From assembly GCF_051903065.1 (NCBI RefSeq), contig NZ_CP178438.1: a DNA stretch of 64,000 bases; one strand, written 5' to 3'. The notes under the pieces were generated by a model that saw nothing but the letters and a program-made list of their open reading frames with translations, searched no databases and was not told where the DNA came from. The DNA comes from Escherichia coli (lineage in GTDB: Bacteria; Pseudomonadota; Gammaproteobacteria; Enterobacterales; Enterobacteriaceae). This document shows positions 12,332-14,754 of this stretch, piece after piece. Both the position numbers and the translations under genes were made by a program. The stretch's first letter is position 1. Each line of letters opens with the position of its first letter.

Positions 12332-13306
12332 ATGCAGGCGTTACTTTTAGAACAGCAGGACGGCAAAACTCTCGCATCAGTACAGACTCTGGACGAAAGT
12401 CGCCTGCCGGAGGGCGATGTCACGGTCGATGTTCACTGGTCGAGCCTGAACTATAAAGATGCGCTGGCGATTACCGGTAAGGGAAAAATCATCCGTAATT
12501 TTCCGATGATTCCTGGGATCGATTTTGCCGGAACTGTACGCACCAGCGAAGATCCGCGTTTTCATGCCGGTCAGGAGGTGTTACTCACTGGCTGGGGCGT
12601 TGGTGAAAACCACTGGGGTGGGCTGGCGGAGCAGGCGCGAGTGAAAGGTGACTGGCTGGTTGCCATGCCGCAAGGGCTGGACGCGCGTAAAGCAATGATT
12701 ATCGGTACTGCCGGTTTTACCGCCATGCTGTGTGTGATGGCGCTGGAAGATGCCGGTGTTCGCCCGCAGGACGGGGAGATTGTCGTGACGGGTGCCAGTG
12801 GTGGCGTCGGCAGTACCGCCGTGGCGCTGCTGCATAAGTTGGGTTATCAGGTCGTTGCCGTTTCCGGTCGCGAAAGTACCCATGAATATCTGAAAAGTTT
12901 AGGTGCCAGCCGTATTCTCCCTCGTGATGAGTTTGCCGAATCCCGTCCTCTGGAAAAACAAGTCTGGGCTGGGGCAATTGACACTGTTGGCGACAAAGTG
13001 CTGGCAAAAGTGCTGGCGCAAATGAATTACGGCGGCTGCGTGGCGGCCTGTGGTCTGGCGGGTGGTTTTACTCTGCCAACCACGGTCATGCCATTTATTC
13101 TGCGTAATGTCCGTTTGCAAGGGGTGGATTCAGTAATGACGCCACCAGAACGCCGCGCACAAGCCTGGCAGCGACTGGTCGCCGATTTACCGGAATCATT
13201 CTATACCCAGGCGGCAAAAGAGATATCTCTGTCAGAGGCACCGAACTTTGCCGAGGCCATCATTAATAACCAGATCCAGGGTCGCACGCTGGTGAAGGTT
13301 AACTAA
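12332..13306 (+). CDS. acuI: Acrylyl-CoA reductase / zinc-type alcohol dehydrogenase-like protein
   Basis: 324-aa ORF MQALLLEQQDGKTLASVQTLDESRLPEGDVTVDV, MDR-family fold. Confidence 0.85.
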   Translation: MQALLLEQQDGKTLASVQTLDESRLPEGDVTVDVHWSSLNYKDALAITGKGKIIRNFPMIPGIDFAGTVRTSEDPRFHAGQEVLLTGWGVGENHWGGLAEQARVKGDWLVAMPQGLDARKAMIIGTAGFTAMLCVMALEDAGVRPQDGEIVVTGASGGVGSTAVALLHKLGYQVVAVSGRESTHEYLKSLGASRILPRDEFAESRPLEKQVWAGAIDTVGDKVLAKVLAQMNYGGCVAACGLAGGFTLPTTVMPFILRNVRLQGVDSVMTPPERRAQAWQRLVADLPESFYTQAAKEISLSEAPNFAEAIINNQIQGRTLVKVN

Positions 13307-13985
13307 CCATTTAGCAAGGAATAATAAGAGAGGGAACTCATTTTGAAATCATTATTCAATCGGTTAACGGGAAAAGCGGTTAGCCGGACAGCTTTCGTCG
13401 AACACCTTGGTCATGAAGTTGTACAACATCATCCAAACTGGAAAGTCATGATTTCGACTGACCATAAATTGATGCGCATTGATACTCCACTAAACAGCTA
13501 TTATTGATACGCCTCCGTCGCCTGTTAGGTTTATGGTGCTTTGCCTGGGCGACGCTACGCTTAACCTGTTACTGATTTCTGGTACCATGGGGTGAATAAT
13601 CTGATTTTATTTGGCTACAAATTAACCACTCGAACCTATTTAATGCTGAGCATTGTCAGTCGGTTAATTTTGCGTGCTTTAGCATTCACATCTATCCAGA
13701 CGATGCAGTGAAAATTGGGTAATCCCCAGCAACCGCTGCGTAATGTCGTCTATCTTGTCGCGATCCTGGCATCCCTACATTATTTGTGGTCTGTGAAGAT
13801 TATCTCATTGCAGCCCCTCATCTTCGCAGGGCTGGCTTTACAGCTTTTCACCTTACGTTATAAGAAGTTCCGTCGATGATGGCGCTAATTTCGTGAATTG
13901 TGCGGCTTGTTGCAAATTACACGGTGTTGAAGGTTATTTACATGTTAGCTGTTGATTATCTTCCCTGATAAGACCAGTATTTAGC

Positions 13986-14012
13986 TGCCAATTGCTACGA
14001 AATCGTTATAAT
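13986..14012 (+). promoter_or_regulatory. Candidate sigma70 promoter for accBC (-10 TATAAT at 14007-14012)
   Basis: Perfect TATAAT about 270 nt upstream of accB ATG; -35 not clearly assignable; accBC is known to have a long leader. Confidence 0.3.
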
Positions 14013-14283
14013 GTGCGACCTCGTCCTCCCTGACGCAGTTTTTGCGCTGCGGAAAAGGTGACATTGGCGCAACGAAGGTATATTTTGTTTTTTGCCGGAG
14101 GATAGCAGCAGATCGCTGCACAATGTCCGTCAAGTCTAACATTGACACTCTGGGGCAAAATAGACCGGCGTCCCGGCCTGCTGGAATTTATCGCTATGCA
14201 TACAGCTGTCGGGGCATACGCTTTACAGACGGCGGTGAAACGCCTGTCACAATCACACTAAACAAAGAGTACGGAACCCACTC

Positions 14284-14754
14284 ATGGATATTCGTAAGAT
14301 TAAAAAACTGATCGAGCTGGTTGAAGAATCAGGCATCTCCGAACTGGAAATTTCTGAAGGCGAAGAGTCAGTACGCATTAGCCGTGCAGCTCCTGCCGCA
14401 AGTTTCCCTGTGATGCAACAAGCTTACGCTGCACCAATGATGCAGCAGCCAGCTCAATCTAACGCAGCCGCTCCGGCGACCGTTCCTTCCATGGAAGCGC
14501 CAGCAGCAGCGGAAATCAGTGGTCACATCGTACGTTCCCCGATGGTTGGTACTTTCTACCGCACCCCAAGCCCGGACGCAAAAGCGTTCATCGAAGTGGG
14601 TCAGAAAGTCAACGTGGGCGATACCCTGTGCATCGTTGAAGCCATGAAAATGATGAACCAGATCGAAGCGGACAAATCCGGTACCGTGAAAGCAATTCTG
14701 GTCGAAAGTGGACAACCGGTAGAATTTGACGAGCCGCTGGTCGTCATCGAGTAA
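14284..14754 (+). CDS. accB: Biotin carboxyl carrier protein of acetyl-CoA carboxylase
   Basis: 156-aa [31 protein letters not shown] with Ala/Pro linker and EAMKMMN biotinylation motif. Confidence 0.95.

Follow-up and report, generated by a model that had tools for sequence, protein, structure and literature searches.

A 54-codon reading frame between acuI and accB of Escherichia coli is almost certainly the remnant of a known pseudogene, yrdF

A stretch of 64,000 nt of Escherichia coli DNA (contig NZ_CP178438.1; hereafter, the window) contains a TTG-initiated open reading frame (ORF) of 54 codons in the long interval that separates acuI from accB. In a preliminary description, this frame was put forward as a possible unannotated gene for a small protein, with the alternative that the whole interval could be a purely regulatory region, namely a long accBC leader. 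The locus thus raises the question of what the frame is and of what fills such a gap. The order of genes in the window is csrD (minus strand), acuI (plus strand), the gap, accB and accC, and the gap, described as being of about 1 kb, measures 977 nt from the end of acuI (13306) to the start of accB (14284). The ORF exists and its translation had been given exactly, but its position had to be corrected by 14 nt rightward, to 13343..13507 of the plus strand including the stop codon, instead of 13329..13493. The purine-rich stretch noticed ahead of the TTG was also found (GAGAGGGAA, 13328–13336, 6 nt upstream). The plus strand of the gap also holds another ORF of 54 codons and one of 89 codons, so the length of the ORF alone does not place it above chance. 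The features of the region are collected in Table 1.

Table 1. Features of the acuI–accB region, in coordinates of the window.
Feature	Position	Strand	Basis
acuI (yhdH), intact	12332..13306	+	324-aa ORF; so named in all matching RefSeq records; piN/piS 0.09 (12 strains)
Shine-Dalgarno-like GAGAGGGAA, native yrdF ribosome-binding site	13328..13336	+	read from the sequence; conserved in orthologues
yrdF', 5' stump, codons 1–48 of the 276-codon yrdF (K-12 pseudogene b4697)	13343..13485	+	K-12 annotation; identity to WP_000838294.1
54-codon ORF: 48 yrdF codons, 6 out-of-frame codons (PLNSYY) and TGA	13343..13507	+	ORF list; sequence comparison
TTGATAC at the deletion junction, one copy of a 7-nt direct repeat	13479..13485	+	comparison with the 65-codon allele
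yrdE', C-terminal two-thirds of an msrQ/yedZ paralogue (K-12 pseudogene b4646)	13486..13879	+	K-12 annotation; msrQ alignment
Normal msrQ–accB spacer: accBC promoter and long 5' leader	13880..14283	+	392-nt equivalent in the Citrobacter-like locus L027
Conserved block around the accBC promoter	13944..14021	+	near-invariant against E. albertii and a Citrobacter-like genome
accB	14284..14754	+	156-aa ORF; RefSeq annotation

The RefSeq annotation of K-12 MG1655 shows two pseudogenes between yhdH/acuI and accB, yrdF (b4697, 143 nt) and the abutting yrdE (b4646, 394 nt), located at positions 3404495–3404637 and 3404638–3405031, which correspond to 13343–13485 and 13486–13879 of the window, respectively. 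Over the 977-nt gap, 14 positions distinguish the window from K-12, and 52 of the 54 residues encoded by the ORF are identical. The surrounding 1051-nt region was matched in 5425 of 5426 complete E. coli genomes with 95–100% identity, being 100% identical in strain ECNB21-M121, and the 54-aa peptide of the window is identical to "hypothetical protein" entries of O157:H7. The frame can therefore not be called unannotated, as the K-12 record already lists it as pseudogene yrdF and other records carry it as a hypothetical protein. Both yrdF and yrdE are also stated to be pseudogenes in a table footnote (PMC7648144), and a search of the literature for yrdF/yrdE and b4697/b4646 returned only this footnote plus the use of yrdE as a marker site. 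The finding is thus already known in K-12, where the stump is catalogued as a pseudogene, and we consider it almost certain that the 54-codon frame of the window is this same remnant, a leftover of yrdF.

Elsewhere, the treatment of these sequences is uneven. The PGAP annotation of the ORF is inconsistent, with a blank in most records and a "hypothetical protein" (WP_000838293.1) in some, and the pseudogene label that PGAP gives to the yrdE remnant is either "YedZ" or "cytochrome b family". In GenBank, the 54-aa peptide is entered many times as a "hypothetical protein". In public records, the stump peptide also bears misnomers such as "GTPase domain-containing protein" (WP_249538683.1) or "initiation of DNA replication", and a database entry of 205 aa (P0012) consists of AccB fused to the stump, which is probably an assembly artefact.

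An intact form of the gene, of 276 codons and starting from the same ribosome-binding site and TTG, was found in 669 of the 5426 complete E. coli genomes, always on the chromosome and, in every case examined, at the acuI–accB locus. Over codons 1–48, the window does not differ from this intact gene (WP_000838294.1), and the similarity between the long allele and the window stops exactly at position 13485. The type strain of E. albertii also has yrdF with the same TTG, in this case with one nucleotide missing close to the 3' end, a loss that alters the last residues (L011, 5001–5816). The sequence GAGAGGGAACTCATTTTG is identical in the long allele of E. coli, in E. albertii and in an orthologue of 78% identity encoded by a metagenomic contig (L009). 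The ribosome-binding site and TTG start are genuine, and intact orthologues with protein identities as low as 78% keep both. Values of dN/dS calculated for intact yrdF among E. coli, E. albertii and the 78%-identity orthologue were 0.12–0.13, with 0.08 for codons 1–48, and the intact gene is under purifying selection. In some lineages, intact yrdF is itself decaying, as in strain 2013C-3492, where a stop is found at codon 152 (L021, 1365–2066).

Regarding the protein family, an exhaustive HMMER search (phmmer) returned 1013 representative sequences related to YrdF, the top hits listed being mostly of about 260–300 aa. The Pfam family DUF1444 (PF07285) was matched by 51 of 58 aligned family members (best E = 5.8e-20), and intact YrdF itself gave 16 bits (E = 0.009), below the gathering cut-off of 23.8, as well as a match far under the cut-off with NCBIfam PRK13668; the current PGAP name of the intact protein is "DUF1444 domain-containing". 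Judged by full-length transitive homology, intact YrdF is a divergent member of the DUF1444 family, an assignment that applies to the parent gene and not to the stump. No match of the 54-aa peptide with Pfam or NCBIfam families was detected, DUF1444 included. The AlphaFold2 model of intact YrdF has a mean pLDDT of 90.4, and residues 1–48 are modelled as a helix (15–29) and two strands (34–37 and 43–47) of a larger domain, so the stump would have no self-contained fold. A Foldseek comparison of this model with the PDB retrieved no solved structure at E <= 0.001 and provided no functional clue.

A scan of genome contigs with a YrdF alignment detected only E. albertii and a Haloferula locus of 32% identity. 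A tblastn search of YrdF against plasmids (PLSDB) gave no true plasmid carriage: the matches corresponded to three mislabelled records of chromosome size (4.8–4.9 Mb) and to a 354-kb E. coli record that matches the 48-codon stump only. In addition, a YrdF homologue of 62% identity was observed on a metagenomic contig (L005, 1–5501) among KfrA_N, Aca2/YdiL and ResIII-like genes, neighbours that hint that some members of the YrdF family travel on mobile elements.

The DNA that follows the stump derives from a different gene. Positions 13486–13879 of the window align to nucleotides 197–585 of K-12 msrQ with about 78% DNA identity, and the conceptual translation of yrdE is 70–72% identical to E. 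coli MsrQ, the functional msrPQ genes of E. coli being located elsewhere, beside hiuH. The remnant yrdE' has lost the first ~65 codons, has a 1-nt insertion near 13583, and carries an in-frame TGA at 13709–13711 in place of a CGA of msrQ. The last six codons and the stop of the ORF come from this msrQ-like DNA (…AAACAGCTATTATTGATACGC…), translated in a frame other than that of msrQ, with the TGA (13505–13507) falling within the msrQ-like codons TTA TTG ATA CGC, and the six C-terminal residues differ among strains (PLNSYY, PPNSHY or PLNSHY).

Several observations concern the 3' ends of these msrQ sequences. At 13874–13891 of the window, yrdE ends as …KKFRR-TGA-TGG-CGC-TAA, and the MsrQ of a Citrobacter-like genome ends as …KKFRQWWR-stop. 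The first stop, which the K-12 annotation of yrdE uses, may itself have arisen by a nonsense change, two codons ahead of the original one. The MsrQ of E. coli has a C-terminal extension (…RSLFNRLRKQVHNKLSV) that is found neither in yrdE nor in the MsrQ of other genera, which has 199 aa. The motif SLFNRL of this MsrQ tail (L010, 3060–3119, the 3' end of K-12 msrQ) is the same as residues 3–8 of YrdF (window 13349–13366), a resemblance that was significant for the peptide (6 of 5000 shuffles) but not for the DNA (544 of 2000); it is either a coincidence or the trace of a very old fusion.

Comparison of the complete genomes revealed three structural alleles of the locus: the short one of the window, with 54 codons (4746 genomes; window 13343–13590), the long one of 276 codons (669 genomes; L001 1594–2590, with intact yrdF at 1594–2424) and a rare intermediate of 65 codons (6 genomes; L023 1237–1434). 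Strain HS-02 and contig L026, which showed further odd junctions, were left out because of their scattered 1-nt indels, typical of assembly error. In the short allele, yrdF codon 48 is followed at once by the msrQ paralogue from codon ~66 onward. The sequence of the 65-codon allele is ATTGATAC GGGTCACCAAACGGTGGAAAACACCC TTGATAC TCCACTAAA, with 26 nt between ATTGATAC and the second TTGATAC, and that of the window is ATTGATAC TCCACTAAA, from which it follows that the short allele corresponds to the 65-codon allele after a loss of 33 nt across its two TTGATAC repeats. A separate deletion marks the long allele, in which about 80 nt of a decayed msrP' 5' end are kept (to codon ~25), followed by msrQ' from codon ~98, and this junction is identical in E. 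coli and E. albertii (L001 2425–2600; L011 5816–6000). Nucleotides 197–295 of msrQ' are kept in the short allele (window 13486–13590) and missing from the long one; neither of the two can thus be derived from the other by a single deletion, so their deletions are independent, and the polymorphism would be older than the species split or introgressed. The TGA of msrQ' is common to all alleles, which indicates that msrQ' was dead before either deletion took place.

The gene order preceding these losses can be approached through two relatives. In a Citrobacter-like genome (L027), csrD is followed by acuI-msrP-msrQ-accB-accC-yhdT-panF, with an intact msrQ and an msrQ–accB spacer of 392 nt, and in the metagenomic contig that carries the 78%-identity yrdF, acuI-yrdF is followed by the Tat-signal N-terminus of an MsrP. 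The ancestor of Escherichia would thus have had the order acuI-yrdF-msrP'-msrQ'-accB, with yrdF as a DUF1444-like gene encoding 276 aa. The 65-codon allele would have come from the loss of some 2 kb, msrP' included, by which yrdF codon 58 was fused to msrQ' codon ~66, and a subsequent slippage deletion of 33 nt between the two TTGATAC repeats would have led to the common 54-codon allele. We infer this two-step order from the three present-day alleles. The ancestral position of yrdF beside msrPQ hints at a link of YrdF with oxidative stress. The DUF1444 protein YtpQ of Bacillus has been tied to iron and oxidative stress.

To analyze selection on the stump, 12 strains with the short allele were taken from across the range of identity, including the window and L002–L004. 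Over its 48 codons, the stump showed 13 nonsynonymous and 3 synonymous changes, a piN/piS of 0.78 and a nucleotide diversity of 0.032, the last value being raised by the choice of strains with a query that contained the stump, which does not raise its N:S ratio. In the same strains, acuI presented 15 nonsynonymous and 47 synonymous changes (piN/piS 0.09, diversity 0.018), accB presented 1 and 10 (piN/piS 0.02, diversity 0.006), and the 404-nt spacer before accB had a diversity of 0.002. The counts of the stump and of acuI differ significantly (Fisher p = 4.6e-5). The comparison of synonymous and nonsynonymous substitutions, proposed in the preliminary description as a check on the frame, thus gave no sign that purifying selection acts on the peptide; the stump changes as neutral DNA does, and the spacer before accB is strongly constrained. 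In all 12 strains, the frame was open at 54 codons and the ribosome-binding site and TTG were kept, although at the ~3% divergence observed over 165 nt less than one stop gain is expected, which makes the openness of the frame uninformative.

The last part of the gap is the one that corresponds to the regulatory reading of the preliminary description, which holds for the final ~404 nt and fails for the ORF, placed in pseudogene debris about 480 nt upstream of a promoter-like site. The gap of ~1 kb is, in sum, composed of ~570 nt of pseudogene debris and 404 nt of ordinary accBC promoter and leader. The best sigma-70-like site in it is CTGCCA-16-TATAAT (10 of 12 matches, 13985–14012), and a block of 78 nt (13944–14021) is near-invariant among the window, E. 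albertii and the Citrobacter-like genome, its few differences being those at window positions 13991 and 14004. Li and Cronan reportedly mapped a distal accBC promoter with a long leader, with which this conserved, promoter-like site agrees. Separately, the spacer at 13880–14283 was seen to be far more constrained than the synonymous sites of the flanking coding genes. The sole Rfam match obtained for 13200–14400 at a permissive E-value, Ysr190, lies in the accBC promoter/leader and was rejected, its 25 bits falling below the gathering score (66).

As for the expression of the stump, intact yrdF is followed in the long allele by a strong terminator hairpin (L001 2487–2515), with an 11-bp stem, a T-run and a fold z of −4.2, which the window has lost through its own deletion, and no intrinsic terminator was predicted in the window between acuI and the accBC promoter. 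Without a terminator after acuI, and with the ribosome-binding site and TTG surviving, the stump may still be co-transcribed with acuI and translated; on these sequence features, co-transcription is plausible. The 54-aa peptide, if made, would be a by-product, a fragment of a fold followed by six out-of-frame residues and unmaintained by selection. The ribosome-profiling supplement of the preprint of Stringer et al., the only searchable one, had no entry for yrdF or for coordinate 3404495.

Three other explanations of the frame were weighed against that of a pseudogene remnant. That it is a chance open frame without coding ancestry could be thought from the equal or longer ORFs of the same gap and from the frequency with which TTG starts occur by chance, but the 48-codon homology makes the ORF more than that, and its identity to an intact gene under selection, at the same position and with the same ribosome-binding site, refutes the idea. 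A second proposal is that of a functional small protein kept or co-opted after the deletion, for instance a micro-protein derived from the N-terminus of YrdF. The conservation of ribosome-binding site, TTG and open frame in the 12 short-allele strains extends to the 65-codon allele, which, together with the lack of a terminator before the ORF and its call as a CDS by several annotation pipelines, speaks for this proposal. Nevertheless, its pattern of substitutions is significantly unlike that of acuI, its variable C-terminal residues come from out-of-frame msrQ sequence, and database entries contain at least 36 distinct variants of the peptide, in three 90% clusters. The fragment would also be an incomplete subdomain of the parent fold as modelled, it matches no family, the one ribosome-profiling supplement searched (Stringer et al.) does not list it, and the K-12 curators regard it as a pseudogene. 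Consequently, we regard a retained function as very improbable, and the claim of a new small-protein gene gives way to that of the 5' stump of a deleted gene, a pseudogene in K-12, with a six-codon out-of-frame tail and a neutral substitution pattern. A specific form of the same proposal, by which the stump would be co-transcribed and translated into a 54-aa chimera (YrdF 1–48 plus six new residues) with a lineage-specific activity in 87% of E. coli, seems just as far from probable; if true, it would be a case of a gene remnant serving as raw material for a new micro-protein.

The other explanation is that the stretch forms part of the long accBC regulatory leader, with the ORF as an upstream or leader ORF. 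The length of the gap and an unusually long accBC leader, together with the autoregulation of accBC (review PMC3896788), would fit this view. However, the promoter-like site and the block conserved in the Citrobacter-like genome are located ~480 nt downstream of the stop of the ORF, the 404-nt spacer alone matches the msrQ–accB spacer of genomes with an intact msrQ, and nucleotide diversity is 0.002 in the spacer versus 0.032 in the stump. Furthermore, growth and cell dimensions were those of the wild type when a kanamycin cassette was placed immediately after yrdE, a site that separates the stump from the accBC promoter and leaves the stump itself undeleted (bioRxiv 10.1101/359208), and the strains with the long allele (12%) have about 755 nt more DNA plus a terminator at this place with accB unchanged. 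A leader role for the ORF thus appears even less probable than a functional peptide, and the best explanation is that the stump plays no role in the control of accBC.

Taken as a leftover of yrdF, the frame is one candidate small protein struck off, and the long acuI–accB gap is explained. The consequence for biology is small, and the practical value lies in annotation: the same 165 nt are left blank, called a hypothetical protein or spuriously named, and the pseudogene label used in K-12 is the correct one. The locus is also a compact case of a gene that decays step by step, as the species still carries three structural alleles of it.

With respect to known systems, the stump resembles the validated small proteins of E. 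coli (<=50 aa, supported by ribosome profiling and tagging) in its size, its Shine-Dalgarno-like site and its location between annotated genes, but it differs from them in lacking purifying selection, in deriving from a truncated larger gene and in its absence from the supplement of Stringer et al. MsrQ/YedZ, the heme-binding subunit of the periplasmic methionine sulfoxide reductase (Ferric_reduct, PF01794), is homologous to 13486–13879 of the window, whereas yrdE' lacks the N-terminal third and has a frameshift and an internal stop, and the ORF runs through it in the wrong frame. The stump itself is without any DUF1444 signal. Intact YrdF (WP_000838294.1) has the same first 48 codons, ribosome-binding site and start codon as the window, from which codons 49–276, the 3' UTR and the terminator hairpin are missing. 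Finally, yrdF of K-12 (b4697) is found at the same locus, 37 nt past acuI/yhdH, with the same TTG and the same 143-nt extent up to yrdE; there is no structural difference between them, and the window, which belongs to another E. coli strain, departs from it within the ORF by only 3 nucleotides (H24Q, V27I and one synonymous change).
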